From a phage: 64,000 nt of DNA. The notes beneath the pieces were generated by a model, which saw only the letters and a list, made by a program, of their open reading frames with translations, was not told where the DNA came from and did no database searches. Positions 1,487-52,057 of this stretch are shown one piece after another. Each line of letters begins with the position of its first letter. Position 1 is the stretch's first letter. The position numbers were made by a program, and so were the translations under genes. Location: sequence record OR896157.1; one strand, written 5' to 3'.

Positions 1487-4195
1487 TTAGAAATCAAACA
1501 TATTGTCTAAAGACGCTTTTTCTTCATAGTCTAATCCAGAAGCTTCTGACATACCAGCAAGTGGCTTAACGAAAGACTTTTGGAACAGAGTCGTATAGTC
1601 CAACCAAGCCAGAACATCTTGACGAATTTCCTGCGGAAGTTCAGTACCTGATGGCCAGGCGATACACTTGTCACCGAATGGGTTACCCTGACGAAGTGGA
1701 AGAACCATCACCTTGTTACCCTCGAGAATCGGAGTGACAGAGAATCCTGCCGTTGCACGATTATAAGTCAGTGCACCACGAACGTGATATGGACATTTCA
1801 GACCAGGGAAACCATTATCGTCATATTTACCAATGTCATTACAAGTTTTAACTTCTGCAATAACTTTGTAGTCCAGCTGACGATATTCCTTCTCAAACTG
1901 TTTGTAGTATTCTTGCAGTGATTCTTCGCCTTCTTGAACCATACGACGAATACTTTCTTCCAGTGCTTTCTGAACTGCTTTTGGCGTAGAAGACTGCTGA
2001 GTTTCCATGCCCATAATCTTCAAGTGTGGTTCAGCATAACGCTTATCTTCCATGTCGTAAACGTTCAGTGCATAACGTTTCTTAGCTTTCCAGAATCCAC
2101 CACAACCTTTTGAACCAAGCGGCGGACATGAAATAGCTTCTCGGTCCATGTGCATAAGATGTTCACGGTTATTGAAATATTCGCACAGTTCACGATAAGC
2201 AGTATCAATCATCGGTTCCATTTTCTTCTTACCGAATTGGTTCATAAATTCAACCACTTCGTCAGTCGTTTTGAAACGTTCAAGACCTACTTTTTCAATA
2301 ACTTTGTCAACAGAAACGTAGATTGAGTCAGTATCACCTGCTGCGATGAAATCAAATCCTTCAGTTCCACACACTTTATTCAGATACTCGTTAACTTTAC
2401 GAGCAATCCAACGAATACCTACTTGACCAAACAGTGTAATAGCAGATGCGTTACGAAGGTCATAATAACGGAAGTAGATGTTACCCAAAGCACCATAAAG
2501 ACTGTTGATAAGAATCTTACGGTTCAACTGGTTTGTGTTTGCTAGAATAGCAGCAGCTTCACATCGAGCCAGCATAGTTTCCAACACCAACTTCGTGTAC
2601 TTATTCAGTGATGCTTTCTGTTCGTCAGTGTACTGAGTGTAACGAGTTTCATCTGGAGTATCAATGTCACCGAATACGCCAGCTGCCAGAACTTTCTTAA
2701 TTTCTTCTGCGTTACGTTCTTCTGCGAACATCTTTTTCTTCCAATCTTTACGCTGGAAGAATACCTTAGCGATTTCTACTGGGATGACACCTTCAATATC
2801 TTTACGATACATCCAACCGTTCGGTGAGCAAGAATACTCGTCACTTGGACGTGGTGCAGTCTTATTGATATAAGCTTCAATATCATAAAGTTTGAATTGA
2901 CCAACAATAGTTTCCGGAGAAATATTCACCTGACGAATGATACTCGGATACAGAGATGTTAAGTCAAAACTCATGATGTACTTACGAGCGCATGCTAATG
3001 GTTCAAATACATATGCACCTGGATAACTTTGCTTGATATGACGCTTACCTTGAGGAACAACTTTGTTCTGTTCTTTCAGGGAGTTAAAGATAATTGCGTC
3101 CCAAGTTTTAATCGGAGACATTACACCACCAAACGGCATCTTGGCATAATAAGACATACTAAGTGCCAGGTCAATGAATCCACGAACTCGGTCAATACCA
3201 CCTACGGACTCAACGTCCATAATGTTATAGCTAATGTATCGTTGGTGATTTGTTTCACGAAGTTTGTTAATTGGACCATCGTATGGCAACTTACCACGTT
3301 TAGTCTCGTATAGAGCGATGTAGTCCAAGTTATAAGTTGGTTGGTTCGTGAATGAATACTTCTTGTACAAATCCATGTAATCCAGAATTGTTACACCATC
3401 AATACTGAATACTTCTTTTTCACCGTACATGTTCTGAATGAGTTTTGAATTCACTCGATTGATTGGAGAGAATCGTTTCATTGAACGTTCACCCAATACA
3501 TGCTTAACACGGTTCATGATGTATGGAATATCGAAGCCTTCAATGTTCCAACCCGTGAAGATTGCTGGACGCTTTTGTTCCCAGAGATTGATATATTCCA
3601 GAAGAAGTTCTTTCTCTGAATGGAAAGGCATGTACACTACACGGTCGAGAATATGTTGTGGAACTTCGTCTCCACCTTCTTTATCACTTCGTGCAGCTAA
3701 CTTCGCGTCCCATTCTGAAACTGAGCCATACAGAGAATCTAACAAATCGAAAACGTAGAACTTATCATCGATTGAATCATAATGAGTGATTGCATCGATT
3801 TCGTACATAGCTTTCATTGGGTCTGGGAATTTATCACCTGTAACTTCGATGTCACAGTTCGCAACACGAATGAATTTCTTGTCATAAACAATTTCAGAAC
3901 CATAAGTGTCGGAGATATAAGCGAGTTTGAAGTCATCCATACCCATGGCTTCAAGACCGATATCTTCCATACGACGAATCCAATCACGAGCATCTTTCAT
4001 GGTTGGGAATGTGTTTTTGATACATGGTTTCCCATAGATATCAAAGAACTTTGTCTTCACACCTTGTTGAGCATGAGAAAACATAGTTGGAGAATATTCA
4101 ACTCGTCGTTGACGTTCTACACCATTGGAGTCAATATAACGTTCAATGATGTCATTACCTGCGGTTTCAATAGAGATATAAAATTCTTGTGCCAT
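1487..4195 (-). CDS. 43: DNA polymerase (T4 gp43, family B)
   Basis: 902-aa ORF collinear with remembered T4 gp43; exonuclease and polymerase motifs (DIE, YGDTDS, KILINSLYGALG). Confidence 0.97.
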   Translation of the reverse strand: MAQEFYISIETAGNDIIERYIDSNGVERQRRVEYSPTMFSHAQQGVKTKFFDIYGKPCIKNTFPTMKDARDWIRRMEDIGLEAMGMDDFKLAYISDTYGSEIVYDKKFIRVANCDIEVTGDKFPDPMKAMYEIDAITHYDSIDDKFYVFDLLDSLYGSVSEWDAKLAARSDKEGGDEVPQHILDRVVYMPFHSEKELLLEYINLWEQKRPAIFTGWNIEGFDIPYIMNRVKHVLGERSMKRFSPINRVNSKLIQNMYGEKEVFSIDGVTILDYMDLYKKYSFTNQPTYNLDYIALYETKRGKLPYDGPINKLRETNHQRYISYNIMDVESVGGIDRVRGFIDLALSMSYYAKMPFGGVMSPIKTWDAIIFNSLKEQNKVVPQGKRHIKQSYPGAYVFEPLACARKYIMSFDLTSLYPSIIRQVNISPETIVGQFKLYDIEAYINKTAPRPSDEYSCSPNGWMYRKDIEGVIPVEIAKVFFQRKDWKKKMFAEERNAEEIKKVLAAGVFGDIDTPDETRYTQYTDEQKASLNKYTKLVLETMLARCEAAAILANTNQLNRKILINSLYGALGNIYFRYYDLRNASAITLFGQVGIRWIARKVNEYLNKVCGTEGFDFIAAGDTDSIYVSVDKVIEKVGLERFKTTDEVVEFMNQFGKKKMEPMIDTAYRELCEYFNNREHLMHMDREAISCPPLGSKGCGGFWKAKKRYALNVYDMEDKRYAEPHLKIMGMETQQSSTPKAVQKALEESIRRMVQEGEESLQEYYKQFEKEYRQLDYKVIAEVKTCNDIGKYDDNGFPGLKCPYHVRGALTYNRATAGFSVTPILEGNKVMVLPLRQGNPFGDKCIAWPSGTELPQEIRQDVLAWLDYTTLFQKSFVKPLAGMSEASGLDYEEKASLDNMFDF

Positions 4196-42422: not shown

Positions 42423-42801
42423 GGTTCTTTCTCTGGTTCTTTCTACAAATTCTTATGAAATTTTCAATAGGTTCTTCTGGGGTCTTAATTGGATAACATT
42501 CTTTCCAATTCCAACCACCTAGCAAGTCAAAGATTTGGTCAGGAAGAGAATCCCATGGATGTTCTCTTTCACTGAGTTGAATTATGATGTCGCCAGCAGC
42601 TTCTCTGATTCCGGTATTAAGTTTTCCGTTACAAATCACAACATTCATGAGTGCAGAAAGACAACAACTATCATGGCTTCCATATTTGTTCGGATAGTAA
42701 AAATAATGGTCAATGATATAGCAGTAATTAGGATTTAAGCCTTTCATAGTGTTCCTCCAGTGATTCTGGGGAAACTTTTCAGTCTCCCCATATATTACCA
42801 T
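42394..42801 (-). CDS. hypothetical soluble protein with the same C-terminal motif (ENFIRICRK)
   Basis: 135-aa ORF, no TM helix, shares FIxxCR tail with the four membrane paralogs; 3' end overlaps the promoter (see 42393-42422). Confidence 0.45.
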   Translation of the reverse strand: MVIYGETEKFPQNHWRNTMKGLNPNYCYIIDHYFYYPNKYGSHDSCCLSALMNVVICNGKLNTGIREAAGDIIIQLSEREHPWDSLPDQIFDLLGGWNWKECYPIKTPEEPIENFIRICRKNQRKNRLQQKSSVL

Positions 42802-43034
42802 TAACAGCTGCTAGTATACCACACAGAGCCGTCCTCGTTAACCCCAAAGGTCTCAGAGTTACCTTCGCCATAGCAATCAGAAGACTGCCAATCGTTAAAG
42901 GTCAGATATCCGCCAGAAACTTCCATGCCAAAAGAAGCTTCATTCGCCATAGTTTCAAGTTTACCAAGAAGTTTAGCTACTTCAACTGCAACTTCTTCGA
43001 TTTCTTTACGTTTTTCTTCACGAGTTTTAGTCAT
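42801..43034 (-). CDS. hypothetical protein
   Basis: 77-aa ORF. Confidence 0.45.
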   Translation of the reverse strand: MTKTREEKRKEIEEVAVEVAKLLGKLETMANEASFGMEVSGGYLTFNDWQSSDCYGEGNSETFGVNEDGSVWYTSSC

Positions 43035-43042
43035 AATTTACC

Positions 43043-43354
43043 TTAGCACATATCAGAGGAAGAAAGCCAAACGCCTTCTACAAGTTTTTCATTTTCATCA
43101 ACTTCTACACCATGATGACCTACAAGCCAATGAGCGTCATAGCCTACTGGATAATAAGTACGGCCGTTTCCATAATCACCTACATCAAAAGTCAAACAAT
43201 GCTCATCAGCGATAACTTCAGCAGCTTGTTCAATTTCTTCTGACTGCTCCAGAAGTTTTGCAATAGCTGCTGCAGCAGATTTACGGTCGTTATATTCAGG
43301 AATTTCAATCTGAATTACTTTGTTCATTTCTTGTTCTCTTTGCAATCTGCCCAC
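43043..43354 (-). CDS. hypothetical acidic protein
   Basis: 103-aa ORF. Confidence 0.45.
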   Translation of the reverse strand: MGRLQREQEMNKVIQIEIPEYNDRKSAAAAIAKLLEQSEEIEQAAEVIADEHCLTFDVGDYGNGRTYYPVGYDAHWLVGHHGVEVDENEKLVEGVWLSSSDMC

Positions 43355-43970
43355 GGCAGTAGTTAATGAAATCGGAAACGTCCGCTCCGATATGGCTTCC
43401 AGGAACCTGTAGTTTTTCTACAAGATTATTCATTTCAGCTGAAAAATGCTTAACAAGATATTCTCGTGATGGGCCACGGAATGATTGAGCTTCTTCAAGA
43501 TTATTATCAGCAATAAATGAGAAAATAAACTTTCCACCACGAGTATTATAGTGAACTTCAATAGCTCCACAGAACCAATGACCCATTGAATAACGGTGTC
43601 CTTCGCCTTCTTTTCTAACTTCAGAAGTCAAATTATTCAATGAAATTGATGAATAATGATATGAATGCGCACCCTTATAAGCAATACTGCATCCGTCAGC
43701 AATTAAAGCAGAAAGCATACGACGAGCATCTTTCAAGCTGTTGATGTAAACGTGGCCTGGAACTTTTCGTTCTTTAAGCTGATGATCGTCCATACGCAAA
43801 GAACAATCATCGTATGCCGGAGCCAAAGGTTCAATGATATTGATTAAACGTTTTGGCATACCAGAATATTCTAATTGGCTACGAACATATTTCCCAAACT
43901 TATTTCCAGTACCCTTTGTGATAACTTTAGACTCTTTCTTAGGTTCATTAAAATCATCATAAAAAGCCAT
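43305..43970 (-). CDS. hypothetical protein
   Basis: 221-aa ORF. Confidence 0.5.
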   Translation of the reverse strand: MAFYDDFNEPKKESKVITKGTGNKFGKYVRSQLEYSGMPKRLINIIEPLAPAYDDCSLRMDDHQLKERKVPGHVYINSLKDARRMLSALIADGCSIAYKGAHSYHYSSISLNNLTSEVRKEGEGHRYSMGHWFCGAIEVHYNTRGGKFIFSFIADNNLEEAQSFRGPSREYLVKHFSAEMNNLVEKLQVPGSHIGADVSDFINYCRGQIAKRTRNEQSNSD

Positions 43971-43988
43971 AATCTTCTCCTCTATTAT

Positions 43989-44014
43989 CCCGAAAACCGG
44001 GGATTTCTCCCCGG
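43989..44014 (-). terminator. intrinsic terminator
   Basis: minus-strand CCGGGGA-GAAA-UCCCCGG followed by UUUUCGGG. Confidence 0.6.
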
Positions 44015-44022
44015 TGTATTTC

Positions 44023-44625
44023 TTAGCCTTTCAGACTTTCCAGATATTCCTGGAGATCAGCGGTGGTGGTTTCAATACCAGCAGGAGTGGTGTTGAAGGT
44101 ATCAATACGAGACAGAGTAGTCTGTACATCAACTTTCATCAGAGATGCAGATTCGATGATATCTGCTACATTGTCCAGACCCATGGAGTTAGCAGCACGA
44201 GTTTCACGGATGTACTCGAGTTTCACTTTAAGGTCTTCGCGCTGATCGTCCAGAGCTACAACAGTATTTTCAATTTCAGTGAGCATCTGTGTCAGTTCAG
44301 TTGCTTTGTTACGCAGAGCTTCTGCGGTACGACGATACAGAAGACCGAGTTTAGCATGGGTCTGTACGTCAGCGTTAGGATTTTCAGCCAGAATTCGGCG
44401 AATTTCTTTTTCTTTACTTTCAGCTTGTGCATCTTTTTCTGCAGCAGCTTTAAGTTTATCGTTAATTTCACGTGTTGCCGTCACATGACGAGTTTTCAGT
44501 TTATGAACTTCAGAGATAATATGCTCAGCAGCATGTGTCATCTGGTCTTCTACCGAAGTGTTCTTGGTCATGAAGGTGCCCAGTTTAATGCGGATGAATT
44601 CAACAATTTTCTTCAGAATAGCCAT
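44023..44625 (-). CDS. coiled-coil protein, possibly PspA/IM30-like
   Basis: 200-aa ORF, all-helical charged heptad sequence with amphipathic N-terminus; weak by-eye resemblance to E. coli PspA. Confidence 0.4.
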   Translation of the reverse strand: MAILKKIVEFIRIKLGTFMTKNTSVEDQMTHAAEHIISEVHKLKTRHVTATREINDKLKAAAEKDAQAESKEKEIRRILAENPNADVQTHAKLGLLYRRTAEALRNKATELTQMLTEIENTVVALDDQREDLKVKLEYIRETRAANSMGLDNVADIIESASLMKVDVQTTLSRIDTFNTTPAGIETTTADLQEYLESLKG

Positions 44626-44679
44626 GTTTATTTCCTTTCAGTTTAAAGTAGAGTTATTTTAAATCAAATTTTTAAAGCA

Positions 44680-44916
44680 TTACTCATATGAATTGATGAG
44701 TTCTTCCATTTTATCTAGCACATCGCAATCAATGATGCGCATTACTGCTGGGTCACTGCCGTACTTTTGCATACCATCTGCAATGATACGAGTTATTGTA
44801 TCAAGAGCAGCTTGCCGTTCTTCACCTGACGGGAAGTTTGGAGTTTTACCAAACAGACGATAAAACGAACTAAAATACGTCTGGGCAGCAGCTCTTGCTT
44901 TATCAGGATAATGCAT
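44680..44916 (-). CDS. hypothetical protein
   Basis: 78-aa ORF with GAGGA SD. Confidence 0.5.
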   Translation of the reverse strand: MHYPDKARAAAQTYFSSFYRLFGKTPNFPSGEERQAALDTITRIIADGMQKYGSDPAVMRIIDCDVLDKMEELINSYE

Positions 44917-44919
44917 ATT

Positions 44920-45118
44920 GTGTTCCTCACATACGATGACCGATTACCAGCTTAGCAGTAGGCCAGTTAGTAACAGAATACTCGATTACGTCTTTGACAT
45001 CTTTAGCTTCAACAATGTCAGTCACATGATATTCATGGGTCACCTGTATTCAGGATTGCACGATAATGAGTAACTTCACCGAAATTGTTAGTAATTTCGT
45101 GGATTGTAGAAGTGTTAA
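44920..45118 (-). pseudogene. small gene split across two frames (30 codons then 38 codons)
   Basis: ATG at 45118 with GGAGA SD and own promoter; frame 0 stops after MKFNTSTIHEITNNFGEVTHYRAILNTGDP, frame +1 continues QVTHEYHVTDIV...GHRM to a stop abutting the next SD. Confidence 0.35.
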
Positions 45119-45160
45119 ATTTCATTTTATTCTCCGATTCAATTTTGTTTTGATGAGGTA

Positions 45161-45190
45161 ATAATACCACACTACCTCATCATTGTAAAC
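45161..45190 (-). promoter_or_regulatory. T4-type early promoter (GTTTAC-N18-TATTAT)
   Basis: minus-strand motifs, 9-bp dyad GATGAGGTA...TACCTCATC around -10. Confidence 0.6.
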
Positions 45191-45194
45191 AATT

Positions 45195-45455
45195 TTATTT
45201 CATTCTGTTGAAATATTTTTCAGCTGCTTCGTCATCTTTATGGTAGGTCTTAGTCAAAGCTACCGGGCGAACGTTGAAAGTGTTAAGAGAATCGCGAGCA
45301 ATCACGATAGTAAACCAACGGCCATCATCATTACCTAAAGCAGCATAACGATAAGTATCCCATACGAATTGCTTAATGCTTTTGATATCGTTCAAAGAAT
45401 TTGCTAAATCTGAATGACCGTTCTTAGCGAGTTTTTCTGTGATGATGTTGAACAT
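45195..45455 (-). CDS. hypothetical protein
   Basis: 86-aa ORF. Confidence 0.5.
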   Translation of the reverse strand: MFNIITEKLAKNGHSDLANSLNDIKSIKQFVWDTYRYAALGNDDGRWFTIVIARDSLNTFNVRPVALTKTYHKDDEAAEKYFNRMK

Positions 45456-45487
45456 TTTCTTTTACTCCGTTTGTTTTTGATGGAGCT

Positions 45488-45516
45488 ATAATAACACATC
45501 TAGAACCAATGTAAAC
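45488..45516 (-). promoter_or_regulatory. T4-type early promoter (GTTTAC-N17-TATTAT)
   Basis: minus-strand motifs. Confidence 0.55.
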
Positions 45517-45548
45517 GGCTGAAGTGAAAGATTTTAAAGAAGAGATTT

Positions 45549-45580
45549 GGATTCACCAGAACGGTTGAGAGGAACTTTCT
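45549..45580. repeat. 32-bp element GGATTCACCAGAACGGTTGAGAGGAACTTTCT, copy B
   Basis: identical to 22517-22548; same position relative to promoter and terminator. Confidence 0.7.
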
Positions 45581-45610
45581 AGAAGGGAATGATTAAACCA
45601 TTGGCTATAC

Positions 45611-45649
45611 ATACAAAAATGCCCTGAGTGTCATAGAGATACCCAGGGC
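45611..45649 (-). terminator. intrinsic terminator
   Basis: minus-strand GC stem (GCCCUG...CAGGGC) followed by AUUUUUGUAUG. Confidence 0.5.
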
Positions 45650-45656
45650 ATTAAAA

Positions 45657-46310
45657 TTACTTAGTTTCTACCTTTTTGAGTGCTTTGGCACGAACGTCCA
45701 CACGGTGCGCCGACTCTATATATTTGCGAACTTCTTTAGCTATGCCAGTAGTGTAAGCTACAGTTTCGACTGTCGTATACAAGTCCATCAGCTCAGGAGT
45801 GTCGATGTTGCTGATGTTACGACCTCTGCGGATTTTAGCAAACTGAGTTTTAAGTGCAGCACCATCTTTAGAAATTTCGTTGAGAAGAGCGAGAATCTTC
45901 TCATACTTGTTTACGATGCCTTTAACGTCAAACTTGTAAAGGTCTGCGCTAACTTTAGGAGCCGGCGTCGCTTTAGGTGTCTGAACTGGAGCTGCAGGTT
46001 TAACTGCTGGTGCCGCTTTAGGAGCAGGAGCTTTCACTGCAGCAGCTTTAGGTTCTTTTGGTGCTTTTGCCGGAGATTTAATGCCTCTCAGAGTTTTAAA
46101 AGCATTTTGTACTTTGTAATAATCTTGTGGATTAGAAGTTCCAATACCATAAAGTTTTTGGACTGATGCAGCAAATTTCATGAAGTCGTTACGTTCGCCA
46201 GGAGGAACTAAATCCATAGCACTCTGCCACTTCATTTTAGTCATGCGTTCGCCAGCTTCAGTAATCATGTTGAAGCTAGATTCTGTAATAAATTCTTTAA
46301 AGTTAAGCAT
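45657..46310 (-). CDS. internal head protein-like (capsid-targeting sequence MLNFKEFITE) with Ala/Pro/Lys-rich linker
   Basis: track ORF trimmed to internal ATG 46310; N-terminus resembles T4 IP targeting peptide; low-complexity KAPKEPKAAAVKAPAPKAAPAVKPAAP segment. Confidence 0.5.
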   Translation of the reverse strand: MLNFKEFITESSFNMITEAGERMTKMKWQSAMDLVPPGERNDFMKFAASVQKLYGIGTSNPQDYYKVQNAFKTLRGIKSPAKAPKEPKAAAVKAPAPKAAPAVKPAAPVQTPKATPAPKVSADLYKFDVKGIVNKYEKILALLNEISKDGAALKTQFAKIRRGRNISNIDTPELMDLYTTVETVAYTTGIAKEVRKYIESAHRVDVRAKALKKVETK

Positions 46311-46803: not shown

Positions 46804-46879
46804 TGGTGCCGGTTAACGGATTCGAACCGCTGACCCTCTCATTACAAATGAGCTGCTCTACCAACTGAGCTAAACCGGC
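46804..46879 (-). tRNA. tRNA-Thr (anticodon UGU)
   Basis: manual fold: acceptor GCCGGUU/AACCGGC, D GCUC..GAGC, anticodon loop UUUGUAA, T-loop GGUUCGAAUCC, CCA encoded. Confidence 0.8.
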
Positions 46880-46880
46880 T

Positions 46881-46965
46881 TGGTGCATCAAGAGGGATTC
46901 GAACCCTCAATCCTTTCGGCGGGGCATTTTAAGTGCCCTGTGTATACCAGTTCCACCATTGATGC
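46881..46965 (-). tRNA. tRNA-Leu (anticodon UAA), class II
   Basis: acceptor GCAUCAA/UUGAUGC, anticodon loop CUUAAAA, 13-nt variable arm, T-arm GAGGG-UUCGAAU-CCCUC. Confidence 0.8.
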
Positions 46966-46971
46966 GAAATT

Positions 46972-47056
46972 TGGAGCTAGGAGTGAGATTCGAACTCACG
47001 AAGGGATACCCGGCGGATTTGCAATCCGCTGCCTTTGGCCACTCAGCAACCCTAGC
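46972..47056 (-). tRNA. tRNA with class-II architecture and anticodon GCA (Cys-type)
   Basis: acceptor GCUAGGG/UCCUAGC, anticodon stem-loop GCGGA-UUGCAAA-UCCGC, 13-nt variable arm CGGGUAUCCCUUC; assignment tentative. Confidence 0.5.
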
Positions 47057-47060
47057 AAAT

Positions 47061-47138
47061 TGGTCGAGGTAGAGGGATTCGAACCCGTCGACCTGTGGAT
47101 TAGAAGTCCACTGCTCTATCCAGCTGAGCTATACCCCG
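47061..47138 (-). tRNA. tRNA-Arg (anticodon UCU)
   Basis: acceptor CGGGGUA/UACCUCG, D GCUC..GAGC, anticodon loop CUUCUAA; T-stem has only 3 clean pairs. Confidence 0.7.
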
Positions 47139-47142
47139 AGTG

Positions 47143-47268
47143 TGTTCAGACAGGACTCGAACCTGTAAGCATGTTCTTGCGGCGTTTTACCACCGTCGTC
47201 AGCATATGATTCAATATGCGAACTCAAAAGGTGTTGGACCCCTTGTCTACCAATTCCAGCACTGAACA
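47143..47268 (-). ncRNA. 126-nt tRNA-like stable RNA candidate (possibly rnaC/rnaD-type)
   Basis: 7-bp acceptor-like helix UGUUCAG/CUGAACA and canonical T-arm ACAGG-UUCGAGU-CCUGU enclose ~93 nt with D-loop-like AAUUGGUAGA but no canonical anticodon arm. Confidence 0.4.
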
Positions 47269-47278
47269 ACTTTATTTA

Positions 47279-47503
47279 TTACATATCAACTTGAGTAAAC
47301 CAGTTGATTTTGAAATACTCATCAAAATGAAGAGCAGGTTCAACTTGAGTATCTTCCTCAAGAAGAATTAAATTCTTTCTTACAATCGGGTCAAGATGAG
47401 TTGTGTTTAAGCAGCTATCATGCCAATATGTAAGAACTCGATTTGATTCAGTATCAACGAGATAACGAACATTCATATCAGGATGTCGGTACAGATTAAT
47501 CAT
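47279..47503 (-). CDS. hypothetical protein
   Basis: 74-aa ORF. Confidence 0.45.
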   Translation of the reverse strand: MINLYRHPDMNVRYLVDTESNRVLTYWHDSCLNTTHLDPIVRKNLILLEEDTQVEPALHFDEYFKINWFTQVDM

Positions 47504-47506
47504 AAT

Positions 47507-47956
47507 CTATTTCTCTTGAAGCATTTTGCGTAAACGATAGAGCTGATTACAAAATTCCTTTTCAGTCAAAACTGTTTCAGAGATTTTGTTCTTGCCCATA
47601 CTGTGGGTTAATGTTGCGTTACGAGTAGCAATCAATGCTTTTTGGAATCCAGTGTTTTGAGCAAGTGCGTCATAAGCTCCAGTTAAAAGATTCTGGTATG
47701 CTTCAGATGCTCGATGAATAGGAACACCCTTCCAATAAAGTGTTTGAGTAGGCCACCAACGCTTCTTCTTACCTTTGAACTTTGCTGCCTTTCCAACCAA
47801 TGTGCAAACATGAGCTTGCATTTCAGGGTTAGAAAATTTGAGGGATTGTAAAAATCCCTCCATTGAAGCACATTCTACACCATCATAAACGAAAGCATGT
47901 GGTGCAAAGTTACTTAAAGCACAAGAAGGATATGAACTTCCAGAGCCAATGTCCAT
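47507..47956 (-). CDS. NADAR/YbiA-like protein (DUF1768), candidate ADP-ribose glycohydrolase
   Basis: 149-aa ORF; SNFAPHAFVYDGVECASMEGFLQSLKF resembles remembered E. coli YbiA core (SNFA..DG..SEHYFQAQKF); downstream W...ALxAT pattern also shared. Confidence 0.5.
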   Translation of the reverse strand: MDIGSGSSYPSCALSNFAPHAFVYDGVECASMEGFLQSLKFSNPEMQAHVCTLVGKAAKFKGKKKRWWPTQTLYWKGVPIHRASEAYQNLLTGAYDALAQNTGFQKALIATRNATLTHSMGKNKISETVLTEKEFCNQLYRLRKMLQEK

Positions 47957-48187
47957 TTAATTACCGTGAGATATTCTAGAAGGTTTCTTACCAAAATAAT
48001 ATTCATATGAGCCATCTAAACGACCTGCTTTAGTGCGGCAATATGAATCCCATTTCTTATAATGCCGCCATTCATCATTGTATCTTGGATGACGGTCAGC
48101 GATTAAAATCTCTAATGGCCAACCAGGCGCAAAGGAACGGAGCCGTTCGACCTTTCTAATGTATCTTTTCTTTAAGATTTTCTTCAT
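47957..48187 (-). CDS. hypothetical basic protein
   Basis: 76-aa ORF. Confidence 0.45.
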   Translation of the reverse strand: MKKILKKRYIRKVERLRSFAPGWPLEILIADRHPRYNDEWRHYKKWDSYCRTKAGRLDGSYEYYFGKKPSRISHGN

Positions 48188-48405
48188 ATAGATTCCGACA
48201 TTACGTGAGTAGTTCTCTTTCTGATTGTAAATTGAGTTAATTCATCAACTTCACCACAACGCCAAGCGTCATCTTCAGTTTCAAAACCAAGAGCCTCGAA
48301 TAAGTTGCCTAAACGCCAACCTTCGTCAAACTCGGGGTCTCCTGAAAAATAGTAATAGTAATCGCCAGTTACTAAATCTTGAATTACAAAATCAAACTTT
48401 TCCAT
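48184..48405 (-). CDS. hypothetical acidic protein
   Basis: 73-aa ORF. Confidence 0.45.
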   Translation of the reverse strand: MEKFDFVIQDLVTGDYYYYFSGDPEFDEGWRLGNLFEALGFETEDDAWRCGEVDELTQFTIRKRTTHVMSESI

Positions 48406-48902
48406 CAGATACTTACCACAGTAATAGCTTCAGGAGCTTTAGGAATAACGATATCTTCTTCAATGTAGAAGAGCTTAAATGTTTCAGCTACACGCATAAA
48501 GTCAATATCATAACCGACTGGAGTTCCAATCAATTCTTGAATCTTATCCATCACTTTATACTGAACTTGATAGAAATCTTCAAGACGAGCATCGAATTCA
48601 TCTTCAGTATAATCACCTTCTGGGATTACAAAGCCAAGCACTTCTGAACAGAACTCTGGAGTGATTTCTTCATTTTCAACACAGTATTCAAAGAAAGCAT
48701 CACCGGAATAATCTTCATTACCCATTCCATTAGGGTCTGAATTATCAGATGCAAAACATTTAGCAACGGCACACCAACCTGAAACGTGTCTAGCATTTAC
48801 AGCATAAATCACATTCTCTTGATAATCATCGCCATCGTTTTCCCATGATACACATGATACTGCATAACCTTTAGGGATAGTTTGACCAAAGCGGAGTTCC
48901 AT
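48405..48902 (-). CDS. hypothetical acidic protein
   Basis: 165-aa ORF. Confidence 0.5.
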   Translation of the reverse strand: MELRFGQTIPKGYAVSCVSWENDGDDYQENVIYAVNARHVSGWCAVAKCFASDNSDPNGMGNEDYSGDAFFEYCVENEEITPEFCSEVLGFVIPEGDYTEDEFDARLEDFYQVQYKVMDKIQELIGTPVGYDIDFMRVAETFKLFYIEEDIVIPKAPEAITVVSI

Positions 48903-48912
48903 AATATTTCCT

Positions 48913-49287
48913 TCAATTAAATGGTGGAAGAGATTTCTTATATAAATCTATCATCATTCGCCATTTAGCAATTACTTTAGAATACGGAGATTTATGAGAG
49001 AATTGCGAAATGTCAGAATAATCAAGTTCAGGCAGTGGAGTTAAATGACCCATCAGCTCACGAGGAAATTGATGAAAACAATTCATCAAATCTTTGTAAA
49101 CATAATCAAGTAAGTCTTTAACATCAAAGAATTGGGTATTTAGTCCTTCTTTGGAATAACGATATTTCAAAAATTTCCAATGACCGGACTTAGAATCTTG
49201 AGTAAACGCGTAATCACTATGAAGCATGATATCGCGAACAAAATCTTCAGAAAAGAAGATGGAGTGAGTGCAACCATAATAAATCAT
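48913..49287 (-). CDS. hypothetical protein (124 aa)
   Basis: track ORF trimmed to ATG 49287 (GAGGA SD) so it no longer overlaps tRNA-Met. Confidence 0.5.
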   Translation of the reverse strand: MIYYGCTHSIFFSEDFVRDIMLHSDYAFTQDSKSGHWKFLKYRYSKEGLNTQFFDVKDLLDYVYKDLMNCFHQFPRELMGHLTPLPELDYSDISQFSHKSPYSKVIAKWRMMIDLYKKSLPPFN

Positions 49288-49305
49288 AATATTTTCCTCA
49301 GAATT

Positions 49306-49382
49306 TGGTGACCCCAGCAGGACTCGAACCTGCAACCTAGCGATTATGAGTCGCGTGCTCTAACCAATTGAGCTATAGGGCC
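49306..49382 (-). tRNA. tRNA-Met (anticodon CAU), elongator-type
   Basis: acceptor GGCCCUA/UGGGGUC, D GCUC..GAGC, anticodon loop CUCAUAA, T-arm GCAGG-UUCGAGU-CCUGC, CCA encoded. Confidence 0.8.
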
Positions 49383-49409
49383 AAAGTCCTCCTAAGAGGA
49401 CCGAGGGTA

Positions 49410-49634
49410 TTATTCAACCATGAAATCTGCTACTTCATCAAAGTCGTTATTGATGACAACAGTAAATGGCAGAGCTTCATCACTTGTTTTGATAGTCAGC
49501 TTAACAAAACCATCAACAGTTTCAACCAAACCAACGATTTTATCTGAACGCACTACAGCACGAGCTACGTCAACAATTTTACCAGTCATTGCAAATGTAG
49601 CGATTTGGTTAACTTCAACAACGATACGTTTCAT
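49410..49634 (-). CDS. hypothetical protein
   Basis: 74-aa ORF. Confidence 0.45.
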   Translation of the reverse strand: MKRIVVEVNQIATFAMTGKIVDVARAVVRSDKIVGLVETVDGFVKLTIKTSDEALPFTVVINNDFDEVADFMVE

Positions 49635-49695
49635 TCTTTTTCCTTAGTGGTTTTGATAAGGTAATTATATACTGAATTTTTAAAGCGTTTTCACT

Positions 49696-49729
49696 AAAAA
49701 GCCCCGTAACAGATTTCTCTGCTCGGGGC
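49696..49729 (-). terminator. intrinsic terminator at the distal end of the tRNA array
   Basis: minus-strand GCCCCG...CGGGGC stem followed by UUUUUAGUG. Confidence 0.55.
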
Positions 49730-49735
49730 GTCATT

Positions 49736-49810
49736 TGGTGGGAAGTGTTGGAATCGAACCAACCTCTCATGCTCTTCAGGCACGCGCTAATCCATCTCAG
49801 CTAACTTCCC
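49736..49810 (-). tRNA. tRNA-Phe (anticodon GAA)
   Basis: acceptor GGGAAGU/ACUUCCC, anticodon stem-loop CGUGC-CUGAAGA-GCAUG, T-arm GUUGG-UUCGAUU-CCAAC. Confidence 0.65.
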
Positions 49811-49813
49811 GAT

Positions 49814-49890
49814 TGGTCGGTGCGGCAGGATTTGAACCTGCGACCCCTTGGTCCCAAACCAAGTGCTCTACCAAACTGAGCTACACACCG
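49814..49890 (-). tRNA. tRNA-Pro (anticodon UGG)
   Basis: acceptor CGGUGUG/CGCACCG, D GCUC..GAGC, anticodon loop UUUGGGA, T-arm GCAGG-UUCAAAU-CCUGC. Confidence 0.85.
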
Positions 49891-49896
49891 TTAATT

Positions 49897-49971
49897 TGGA
49901 GCATCCAGAGAGAATCGAACTCTCATCTACTGGGTGGAAGCCAGTCATAATAGCCGCTATACGATGGATGC
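49897..49971 (-). tRNA. tRNA-Gly (anticodon UCC)
   Basis: acceptor GCAUCCA/UGGAUGC, anticodon stem-loop ACUGG-CUUCCAC-CCAGU, T-arm GAGAG-UUCGAUU-CUCUC. Confidence 0.8.
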
Positions 49972-49978
49972 AATTTGT

Positions 49979-50070
49979 ACGGAACGCCTGGATTCGAACC
50001 AGGTTAAATTGCGATTGACGTCACAATTTATCTTATGAAGGCCATGCCTCTACCATATCCGAACGTTCCG
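49979..50070 (-). tRNA. atypical tRNA-like gene / possible pseudo-tRNA with CAU-type anticodon loop (UUCAUAA) and a 9-bp hairpin insertion
   Basis: perfect 7-bp acceptor CGGAACG/CGUUCCG and T-arm CCUGG-UUCGAAU-CCAGG, but weak D and anticodon stems and a 26-nt perfect hairpin before the T-arm. Confidence 0.35.
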
Positions 50071-50121
50071 TCAAAAACGCTACTCGGCTTACGGCTTAGG
50101 CAATTCCTCGAACCGATAATT

Positions 50122-50195
50122 TGGCAGGCCCCGTAGGAATCGAACCCACGTCACTGAGGTTGGAGCTCAGGATAATACCACTATACGAGAGACCT
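50122..50195 (-). tRNA. tRNA-Trp (anticodon CCA)
   Basis: acceptor AGGUCUC/GGGGCCU (two G-U), anticodon stem-loop CUGAG-CUCCAAC-CUCAG, T-loop UUCGAUU. Confidence 0.7.
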
Positions 50196-50199
50196 AAAA

Positions 50200-50293
50200 T
50201 GGAGGAAGCGGTGGGATTCGAACCCACGGACCGTATCACTACGGCCTCCGCATTTCAAGTGCGGTGCAATTAACCAGACTCTGCCACGCTTCC
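50200..50293 (-). tRNA. tRNA-Ser (anticodon UGA), class II
   Basis: acceptor GGAAGCG/CGCUUCC, anticodon stem-loop CCGCA-CUUGAAA-UGCGG, long variable arm, T-arm GUGGG-UUCGAAU-CCCAC. Confidence 0.85.
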
Positions 50294-50297
50294 GAAT

Positions 50298-50373
50298 TGG
50301 GGTGACCGATGGGAGTTGAACCCATGACTACGAGAATCACAATCTCGAGTTCTACCAACTGAACTACGGCCAC
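50298..50373 (-). tRNA. tRNA-His (anticodon GUG)
   Basis: acceptor GUGGCCG/CGGUCAC, D GUUC..GAAC, anticodon stem-loop CGAGA-UUGUGAU-UCUCG. Confidence 0.85.
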
Positions 50374-50587
50374 ATCAATATTCACTCCAGCAATCATGAT
50401 GCCTTCACACGAAATTGAGAGAAGAGTGATCAGTTCAACCCTTGTAGACGCGTCAAGTAAATATTGATGTGACAGCTTATTTAAGAAGAGTGAGAGTCCC
50501 AGTCTTGTACGGAGTAACCATTTATGCATTGGCAGCTATCGCGCGGTTCGCACTTCCGATAAATGGACTTACCGTTACACTCTAATT

Positions 50588-50662
50588 TGGCTGGACTATC
50601 TGGATTCGAACCAGAGATACCGGAGTCAAAGGCCGGTGACTTAACCGCTTGTCTATAGTCCA
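50588..50662 (-). tRNA. tRNA-Gln (anticodon UUG)
   Basis: acceptor UGGACUA/UAGUCCA, anticodon loop CUUUGAC, T-arm UCUGG-UUCGAAU-CCAGA. Confidence 0.8.
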
Positions 50663-50668
50663 ATTGTT

Positions 50669-50745
50669 TGGAGGCGGGTGATGGACTCGAACCATCGCGT
50701 AACGGGATATGAACCCGTCATTCTACCAACTGAAGTTAACCCGCA
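50669..50745 (-). tRNA. tRNA-Met (anticodon CAU), initiator-like features
   Basis: anticodon stem ACGGG/CCCGU with three consecutive G-C pairs next to loop UUCAUAU; position 1:72 mismatched; T-arm GAUGG-UUCGAGU-CCAUC. Confidence 0.65.
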
Positions 50746-50898
50746 TCTATCCGGATTCTTGAAGTACTAACAAGTAGCTTGATGTAGAACACGCTAAAGA
50801 TATAATCTTACGAATATAGAGCTTATTCCGTGGGAACAAACAGCTTCGTCCTCGGCATTATCTTACAGGACTCTGACTTATCTTCAAGAACTGCCTCG

Positions 50899-51363
50899 TT
50901 ATTTTATGAACTTATTTATGAATCGTCTAGCTTGAGTATGACTGACTCCAAGTTCATTTGCAAATTTTACTAATGCACCACGTTTTGTGAAATCAATAGA
51001 ATTATATAAATCTATTCTTAAAGCAATTTCATCTGCAGTGAATTTATGAGCATGATTTTCTGATATTTTTATTTTTGTTTCATCAGAATGATTATGTCCA
51101 GTAAAACCAGTAGATACGATTCTTCCATTTGCGCCAGCGTCTTTAGCATTTTGCGCATTAGTTGCGCAATAAATGTTATCCAAAGAATATGGTCCAACAT
51201 CTCCTTTACGACACATACAATAATTATCTGAGGCTCTACCGCGCAAATGATATTTGCCAGTAGCTTTCCACCATGATAGCCATTCATCAAATGTCAGTTT
51301 AAATTCAATACCTCTTGATTTAGCATGCACTTTTTGCATGCGATACTTTTCATAATCTTTCAT
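50899..51363 (-). CDS. putative freestanding homing endonuclease-like protein (nuclease-like N-half, HTH-like C-half) inside the tRNA array
   Basis: 154-aa ORF; N-terminal GIEFKLTFDEW...NYCMCRKGDVGPYSLDNIYCATNAQNAKD, C-terminal helix-turn-helix-like; T4 carries segB at the analogous place. Confidence 0.4.
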   Translation of the reverse strand: MKDYEKYRMQKVHAKSRGIEFKLTFDEWLSWWKATGKYHLRGRASDNYCMCRKGDVGPYSLDNIYCATNAQNAKDAGANGRIVSTGFTGHNHSDETKIKISENHAHKFTADEIALRIDLYNSIDFTKRGALVKFANELGVSHTQARRFINKFIK

Positions 51364-51377
51364 ATTACTCTCATATT

Positions 51378-51454
51378 TGGCAGTGCTGACGGGTTTCGAA
51401 CCCGCGATCTCTCCCGTGACAGGGGAGTGTCTTGACCATCTCGACTACAGCACT
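51378..51454 (-). tRNA. tRNA-Asp (anticodon GUC)
   Basis: acceptor AGUGCUG/CAGCACU, anticodon stem-loop CUCCC-CUGUCAC-GGGAG, T-loop UUCGAAA. Confidence 0.85.
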
Positions 51455-51699
51455 ATAAATTTACTTTCGTGAGTATGGGATTACCCTCAAGCCTTCCGGA
51501 AAGCTGAATAGGCGTTATTGGCTCTCATATACCCGTGCACAGATATAATCTTCATTAACGCAATAACTTCATCAATATACTCCGAAAGTAAACTTTCGGC
51601 GCCGTATTTAATTTTGACTGTGTAGTTATCGTTGAGGGAACTCACAGACAGGGATTAAAGTGCCGACGACTTATCAGAACGTCTTCTGACTTCTACATT

Positions 51700-51785
51700 T
51701 GGCGGGCCGTGCAGGTATCGAACCTGCCTAGTCATTTCTGACACGGATTAACAGTCCGTCGCTTACCCTCTCAGCCAACGACCCA
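51700..51785 (-). tRNA. tRNA with anticodon GUU (Asn-type) and a 15-nt variable arm
   Basis: acceptor GGGUCGU/ACGGCCC, anticodon stem-loop ACGGA-CUGUUAA-UCCGU, extra hairpin GUCA-GAAA-UGAC, T-arm GCAGG-UUCGAUA-CCUGC. Confidence 0.55.
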
Positions 51786-51789
51786 AATT

Positions 51790-51864
51790 TGGTTCTCCGT
51801 AAGAGAATTGAACTCTTCTTTCCGACGTGAAAGGCCGGCGTCCTAACCGATAGACGAACGGAGA
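51790..51864 (-). tRNA. tRNA-Glu (anticodon UUC)
   Basis: acceptor UCUCCGU/ACGGAGA, anticodon stem-loop CCGGC-CUUUCAC-GUCGG, T-arm AAGAG-UUCAAUU-CUCUU. Confidence 0.85.
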
Positions 51865-51865
51865 T

Positions 51866-51943
51866 TGGTAGGACGTGAGGGAGTTGAACCCATCGACATT
51901 CCGATTAAAAGTCGGATGCTCTAACCAACTGAGCTAACGTCCT
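51866..51943 (-). tRNA. tRNA-Lys (anticodon UUU)
   Basis: acceptor AGGACGU/ACGUCCU, D GCUC..GAGC, anticodon stem-loop UCCGA-CUUUUAA-UCGGA; T-stem only 3 clean pairs. Confidence 0.75.
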
Positions 51944-51981
51944 GTAGATATTTATAATAACAAAAATATCTTTAAGCAAAT

Positions 51982-52057
51982 TGGTGGGAATAACTGGGCT
52001 CGAACCAGTGACCTAACGATTATCGGTCGTTTGCTCTACCAACTGAGCTATATTCCC
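51982..52057 (-). tRNA. tRNA-Ile (anticodon GAU)
   Basis: acceptor GGGAAUA/UAUUCCC, D GCUC..GAGC, anticodon stem-loop AACGA-CCGAUAA-UCGUU (C at position 33). Confidence 0.7.

Follow-up and report, generated by a model that had tools for sequence, protein, structure and literature searches.

Locus and Transcription Signals of the e.6-Type Gene

A stretch of 64,000 nucleotides (nt) of phage DNA (sequence record OR896157.1), referred to below at its full length as the window, was analysed around an open reading frame (ORF) of 200 amino acids (aa) on the minus strand. The phage is a T4-like Karamvirus, and over positions 43000–46000 of the window its DNA shared 98.5% identity with Enterobacter phage vB_EclM_AS6 and 97.1% with PG7, in which the corresponding gene is annotated as "e.6 conserved hypothetical protein". 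The product and T4 e.6 had 54% identity in a full-length BLASTP match (expectation value E = 1e-70), which identifies the product at the sequence level as the Karamvirus orthologue of T4 e.6 (NP_049742, UniProt P39224). The comparisons presented below indicated that this protein is very probably a strongly diverged homologue of the PspA/IM30 proteins, a family that includes Vipp1 and LiaH, from its first helix (α0) through the long hairpin to the C-terminal helix. The ORF is a real gene, since full-length relatives were found by tblastn in 1103 phage records, the protein matched phrog_1203 ("unknown function") over residues 1–199 of 200 (E = 3.1e-76), and the T4 orthologue has been detected as RNA and as protein. 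The span given by the first-pass annotation, 44023–44625, was exact, and the coding strand was the minus strand. The gene and its signals are given below.

44023..44625, minus strand: e.6-type coding sequence, ATG start, 200 aa plus stop codon
44632..44637, minus strand: Shine-Dalgarno sequence AAGGAA, 6 nt 5' of the ATG, read from the sequence
44656..44682, minus strand: putative MotA-dependent (T4 middle-type) promoter, consensus pattern match
43988..44015, minus strand: G+C-rich hairpin ACCGGGGA-GAAA-TCCCCGGT followed by TTTTCGGG, with an 8-pair stem

The T4 middle-promoter consensus is (a/t)3TGCTT(t/c)A, a spacer of 11–13 nt and TAnnnT. The putative promoter of the window consisted of TAATGCTTTA (44673–44682), an 11-nt spacer and the -10 hexamer TAAAAT (44656–44661); the end of the hexamer was 30 nt from the e.6 ATG, and the site overlapped the stop codon of the upstream gene. 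We infer from this match that the site acts as a MotA-dependent middle promoter. The signals were compared in eight phages, namely T4 (L003), L011, L012, L013, L014, L004, L001 and the phage of the window, and a promoter-like site was located directly upstream of e.6 in five of them (the window, PG7, T4, JS98 and KLB27). Its type differed among these phages. The site of PG7 was identical to the middle-type site of the window, whereas T4, JS98 and KLB27 had an early/sigma-70-type site at the same place (GTTTAC or GTTGAC, 17–18 nt, TAnnnT). At the Shine-Dalgarno site, the same AAGGAAAT motif was found 5' of e.6 in T4, JS98 and KMI13. In time-resolved omics of T4, e.6 was assigned to the class "early-RNA_middle-Protein", with both the transcript and the protein observed (PMC9697503 supplement).

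The hairpin began 7 nt past the e.6 stop codon. It was reported on the plus strand by the hairpin scan, the stem being palindromic, and its minus-strand tail contained only 4 T. It probably marks the end of a one-gene unit, as a terminator or as an element that stabilises the mRNA. A G+C-rich stem-loop stood right after the e.6 stop codon in all eight phages, with unrelated stem sequences; in several of them the tetraloop was UUCG or GAAA. The position of this terminator or mRNA-stabilising element is thus conserved, and its sequence is not. The T4 gene occupies the same genome place as the gene in the window, between lysozyme e/nudE and the transfer RNA (tRNA) cluster on the minus strand of the T4-type map, and has the same length and the same one-gene organisation with its own promoter-like site and downstream hairpin. 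The flanks differ, since T4 e.5 is unrelated to the ORF downstream of e.6 in the window. From the promoter-like sites, the hairpins and the lack of conservation of the flanking genes, e.6 can therefore be described as a single-gene pre-replicative unit that has no fixed partner.

Distribution of the e.6 Family

The relatives found by tblastn were chiefly from Escherichia, Klebsiella, Shigella, Aeromonas and Enterobacter phages. When 1.84 billion representative proteins were searched with a HMMER profile, only 45 clusters (at 50% identity) were obtained, and the full-length members of these clusters were about 195–209 aa long. The family was confined to phage and metagenome sequences, except for a partial sequence (P0045) deposited under Xanthomonas campestris. 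Diverged members, with about 24% identity to the protein of the window, were found in Ackermannviridae: gp182 of Klebsiella phage May (Taipeivirus) and homologues in Salmonella phages, the latter belonging to Kuttervirus (PMC9409062). Among the close relatives of the window protein, residues T176, F177, Y194 and L198 were invariant.

Two unusual sequences were also observed. P0047 (154 aa, metagenomic) was e.6-like in residues 1–111, and its remaining part was unrelated and carried PF02774; it is likely a chimeric contig or gene call. P0210 (493 aa, eukaryote-looking) contained seven near-identical repeats DVFSRIDAYSKVPQVTSTNAADVPDSLAFLKLFN, each matching positions 164–197 of the e.6 profile. 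P0210 was not accepted as a relative of e.6, as the match is probably a chance resemblance to the C-terminal 34 residues that was amplified by a repetitive or mis-assembled gene model.

Sequence Profile Comparison with PspA/IM30

Two alignments of the e.6 family were used. The shallow alignment contained only T4-like sequences (28 closer relatives), and the deep alignment contained 35 sequences with identities down to 19%. A homologue search with E. coli PspA returned, among the matches listed, only sequences of at least 86% identity, which were unfit for a diverse profile. The PspA/IM30 alignment was built instead from 12 sequences, comprising tblastn matches in the plasmid and phage collections and one Vipp1 fragment; it covered Enterobacterales, Proteus, Paenibacillus, Pseudarthrobacter, Nostoc, Synechocystis and two gut metagenome contigs.

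The relationship became clearer with the depth of the alignment. Against the PDB, the shallow alignment gave weak and collinear Vipp1 matches (E = 0.35–4.7, residues 6–143 against 6–145). For the deep alignment, eight of the nine best matches were chains of the Vipp1/PspA family (E = 8.2e-5 to 2e-3, 1–146 against 1–147); the best was Synechocystis sll0617 (E = 8.2e-5), and the matches to Vipp1 of 6zvr and 8qbr/8qbv/8qbw had E values of 1.3e-3 to 2e-3. In the direct comparison by hhalign, the deep alignment matched the 12-sequence PspA/IM30 alignment with a probability of 94.7% and P = 5.9e-8 over 199 columns (4–205 against 3–220), at an identity of only about 10%. The P value decreased monotonically as diverged members were added (4e-3, 6e-4 and 9e-5), and it was 1.6e-6 when the rows of the Ackermannviridae type were removed.

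A second line of evidence was transitive. Two diverged members from Ackermannviridae phages exceeded the gathering score of PF04012 (33.9 bits), namely P0190 (39.0 bits) and P0188 (35.1 bits), and three were below it (May gp182, 32.1 bits; P0189, 22.3 bits; P0187, 22.1 bits). The PF04012 alignments of the diverged members all began at profile position 2–3. These proteins matched the shallow e.6 alignment over their full length at E of about 1e-20, and the window protein matched May gp182, which is 84.7% identical to P0190, directly and over the full length (E = 1e-12). Every method gave a collinear alignment, beginning at residue 1 and extending to the C-terminus.

Several local features can be set beside each other in the two families. 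The acidic loop AEDPEK after α0 of PspA has the counterpart SVEDQ in the window protein, the LAxxAL-type motif at the start of α2 has the counterpart KLGLLY, and the C-terminal ending D-x-x-(L/Y)-(L/A)-x-L-K is shared by both. With 200 aa, the window protein is about 20 residues shorter than E. coli PspA (222 aa).

An unrelated coiled coil that resembles PspA and Vipp1 by convergence of composition and heptad periodicity, with no connection to membranes, is very improbable and largely excluded: the hhalign score of the true alignments (55.8) was double the highest value among 61 controls, reversed or shuffled, that keep composition and heptads (reversed, 18.6; 30 column shuffles, maximum 23.1; 30 shuffles of seven-column blocks, maximum 26.5), the alignments were collinear, members stood above the curated Pfam threshold, and an HHpred probability of 99.9% has been published.

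Predicted Structure of the e.6-Type Protein

The structure was predicted by AlphaFold2 with the deep alignment, which gave a mean predicted local distance difference test score (pLDDT) of 84.5 and a predicted template modelling score (pTM) of 0.67; a shallower alignment gave a pLDDT of 66. Six helices were predicted, and they were assigned as α0 (residues 2–22), α1 (25–81), α2/3 (88–147) and C-terminal helices (153–162, 168–175 and 188–199). The helices 25–81 and 88–147, which form the hairpin, had pLDDT values of 90–98, and the confidence was lower for the C-terminal helices. The prediction bore out the all-helical fold proposed in the first-pass annotation, and the long antiparallel hairpin, at pLDDT above 90, is predicted evidence for the coiled coil. 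The predicted layout of α0, long antiparallel hairpin and C-terminal helices is that of the PspA/Vipp1 plan, and the order and length of the helices are the same as in E. coli PspA, the cyanobacterial and chloroplast Vipp1 and Bacillus LiaH.

In the Foldseek comparison with the PDB, the nine best matches were all Vipp1 (probability 1.00, E = 4e-3 to 5e-2), and a further Foldseek comparison gave a similar picture. CHMP1B was next, and PspA (7abk) was further down. To the ESCRT-III proteins (CHMP1B, Snf7/CHMP4 and archaeal CdvB), the likeness was at the level of the fold only, with no signal at the sequence level. The descent from PspA/IM30 would place the e.6-type protein in the ESCRT-III superfamily.

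An amphipathic N-terminal helix had also been proposed, and this part was only partly upheld. Residues 2–19 (AILKKIVEFIRIKLGTFM) are hydrophobic and cationic, with a hydrophobic moment of 0.38, a mean hydrophobicity of 0.28 and a net charge of +3; the corresponding values for α0 of E. coli PspA are similar (moment 0.42, hydrophobicity 0.34). The amphipathicity itself is unremarkable, as 20% of the shuffles of these 18 residues reached a moment of 0.38. The properties of α0 are compatible with a membrane-binding role and do not prove one.

Weighing of the Evidence for a PspA/IM30 Relationship

A number of observations weigh against a PspA/IM30 relative with a role at the membrane, beginning with the ordinary amphipathicity of α0. 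A PF04012 profile match had been named in advance as the check on the PspA resemblance, with its absence counting against the idea, and in the Pfam scan of the window protein alone PF04012 was absent at E <= 10, with only scattered coiled-coil families matched. PF04012 was likewise not matched by T4 e.6 alone at E <= 0.01, and it was not among the 25 Pfam families most matched by the 28 closer relatives. The NCBIfam scan of the window protein did not match the PspA family, and hhalign found nothing between the shallow alignment and E. coli PspA alone. In the HMMER profile search of the 1.84 billion representatives, no cellular PspA was recovered at E <= 1e-3, and the phage clade appears isolated in sequence from cellular PspA. 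With regard to structure, long helical hairpins are a non-specific fold, and the Foldseek E values were weak and the root mean square deviations large, the latter owing to the open conformation of the polymer structures. In Kuttervirus, the gene was present in just 4 of 15 genomes (PMC9409062); the e.6-type gene can be regarded as accessory because it is absent from many of these genomes. Furthermore, the psp partners pspB, pspC and pspF were not among the neighbouring genes, all of which are phage genes with no function assigned. The Psp system consists of pspABC with pspF, and the lytic phages that carry the e.6-type gene encode no pspBC or pspF partners.

The window protein is only about 10% identical to PspA/IM30, and taken alone it lies below the Pfam and NCBIfam thresholds. 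The resemblance suspected in the first-pass annotation is supported at the profile level and through intermediates, that is, by the deep alignment against Vipp1 in the PDB, by hhalign and by the Pfam scores of P0190 and P0188. The PspA assignment rests on the sequence profiles, since the fold is consistent with it and not diagnostic.

The kinship between e.6 and PspA has already been published in two papers, to which the window adds one more orthologue. For the e.6 homologue of Klebsiella aerogenes phage Metamorpho, a genome announcement reported an HHpred probability of 99.9% to E. coli PspA 4WHE_A (PMC7862958). In a study of Salmonella phages, phrog_1203 was found to be homologous to PspA via pdb70, the annotation "phage_shock_protein_A" was proposed, and an anti-abortive-infection role was suggested in which the protein prevents the loss of proton-motive force (PMC9409062). 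No experimental work on the function of e.6 was found in the literature.

Canonical PspA was also looked for in 50,697 phage records and was found in only two of them, L009 (MT835668.1, positions 3001–3678) and L010 (MT839532.1, about 2206–2889), with 31% and 28% identity to E. coli PspA, respectively. Both are contigs of human faecal origin, deposited unverified as "Bacteriophage sp.", and contamination by bacterial DNA could account for them.

Neighbouring Genes

The ORFs and genes around the e.6-type gene are given below.

43305..43970, minus strand: ORF of 221 aa downstream of e.6, phrog_22749, unknown function
42801..43034 and 43043..43354, minus strand: tandem small ORFs of 77 and 103 aa, both matching the C-terminal third of phrog_899
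45657..46310, minus strand: ORF of 217 aa, read from an internal Met, phrog_2280, unknown function
46804..52057, minus strand: 19 tRNA genes with small ORFs between them, as in PG7

A conserved two-gene module of e.6 with the ORF at 43305..43970 was considered and rejected, as this ORF showed no relationship to T4 e.5, nor to the gene that follows the May homologue. PG7 has two short ORFs (PG7_140 and PG7_141) in its place, which suggests a frameshift or an annotation difference between these near-identical phages. The ORFs at 42801..43034 and 43043..43354 can be read as tandem paralogues because both match the same third of phrog_899. Residues 13–81 of the e.6-type protein of the window showed a weak match (E = 0.014) to the middle of phrog_899. 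Upstream of the e.6 homologue, the tRNA cluster starts at a distance of about 2.2 kb.

The product of 45657..46310 begins with MLNFKEFITE, which is close to the capsid-targeting sequence of the T4 internal proteins (ipII; ipI MKTFKEFTST), and its middle is rich in Ala, Pro and Lys. A late-promoter motif, TATAAATA, was located about 30 nt upstream of the ORF. Judged by these features, 45657..46310 probably encodes an internal head protein, as yet unannotated, that is co-injected with the DNA. The e.6-type protein was itself considered as an internal head protein because of its N-terminal I-V-E, a possible prohead-protease site; this candidate was rejected because its signals are early/middle and not late, and because the capsid-targeting-like sequence belongs to the neighbouring ORF.

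Proposed Function and Alternative Explanations

By analogy with PspA and Vipp1, the following mechanism is proposed. Soon after infection, the hydrophobic and cationic α0 would attach the e.6 protein to the inner membrane on its cytoplasmic side. The protein would then polymerise in the manner of PspA/Vipp1, with its hairpins packed laterally and the C-terminal helix extending to a neighbouring subunit; the conservation of T176, F177, Y194 and L198 would fit a conserved self-contact of this kind. The polymer would seal the membrane where it is damaged, or stiffen it, and so preserve the proton-motive force until programmed lysis. Damage could plausibly come from the injection channel, a superinfecting phage, a leaky holin in lysis inhibition or membrane-depolarising abortive infection (Abi) effectors of the host, the last of these being the anti-Abi idea of PMC9409062. 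Taken as a separate claim, this mechanism of membrane protection has slightly less than an even chance of being correct. For the homology to PspA and the membrane-protection mechanism taken together, we put the probability at roughly 0.55. The role suggested in the first-pass annotation, stabilisation of the inner membrane during infection or lysis inhibition, is plausible.

Alternatively, an ESCRT-III-like polymer could serve the phage's own programme, in the timing of lysis or the remodelling of membranes, and be unconnected with host defence; it would hold the membrane against accumulating holin in lysis inhibition, or shape the sites of replication or of the proheads. PspA-family proteins counter the loss of proton-motive force, which is also the holin trigger, and the family is widespread in T4-like phages, with its 1103 records. 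This explanation is nevertheless unlikely: e.6 is pre-replicative, while the genes for holin, antiholin and head proteins are expressed late, the family is present in Ackermannviridae as well, and no lysis gene adjoins e.6, apart from e at about 5 kb.

The e.6 protein could also mimic a regulator, binding PspF, PspB/PspC or PspA and thereby switching off the phage-shock response of the host, or poisoning it by co-polymerisation, with no protection of the membrane. The N-terminal part of E. coli PspA mediates both membrane binding and the control of PspF. The homology includes the N-terminal 145 residues, the Enterobacter, Klebsiella and Escherichia hosts carry psp operons, and the early expression of e.6 falls in a period when the responses of the host still matter. 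The identity to PspA is about 10%, however, and it is not evident that a specific partner interface has been retained. Moreover, T4-type phages shut off host transcription, so that the repression of a sigma-54 operon would be redundant, and the strong conservation of the C-terminal helices speaks for contacts in self-assembly, not for a fragment of a regulator. We regard the regulator mimic as decidedly unlikely.

A further reading can be formulated, in which the e.6 family is a virus-owned polymer of the ESCRT-III/PspA type that is made in the first minutes of infection and, as a counter-defence, either neutralises membrane-depolarising Abi effectors or co-polymerises with host PspA and disables it. 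This reading is tentative and on balance somewhat unlikely.

Biological Significance

As the homology is already in print in two papers, to which the window contributes only one more orthologue, the present finding is of lower value; the function is the interesting part. PspA and Vipp1 form the bacterial branch of the ESCRT-III machinery for membrane repair. With a copy owned by a phage, the question becomes how a lytic phage looks after the integrity of the membrane that it later destroys. The e.6 family is conserved in T4, expressed early and present in more than 1000 phage genomes of two phage families. As proposed in PMC9409062, e.6 could be a counter-defence against membrane-depolarising Abi systems. 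If the neutralisation of Abi effectors or the disabling of PspA were true, e.6 would be a general "membrane-armour" anti-defence gene of more than 1000 T4-like and Ackermannviridae phages. The gene is located in T4, the best genetic model phage, and its function should therefore be quickly answerable there.
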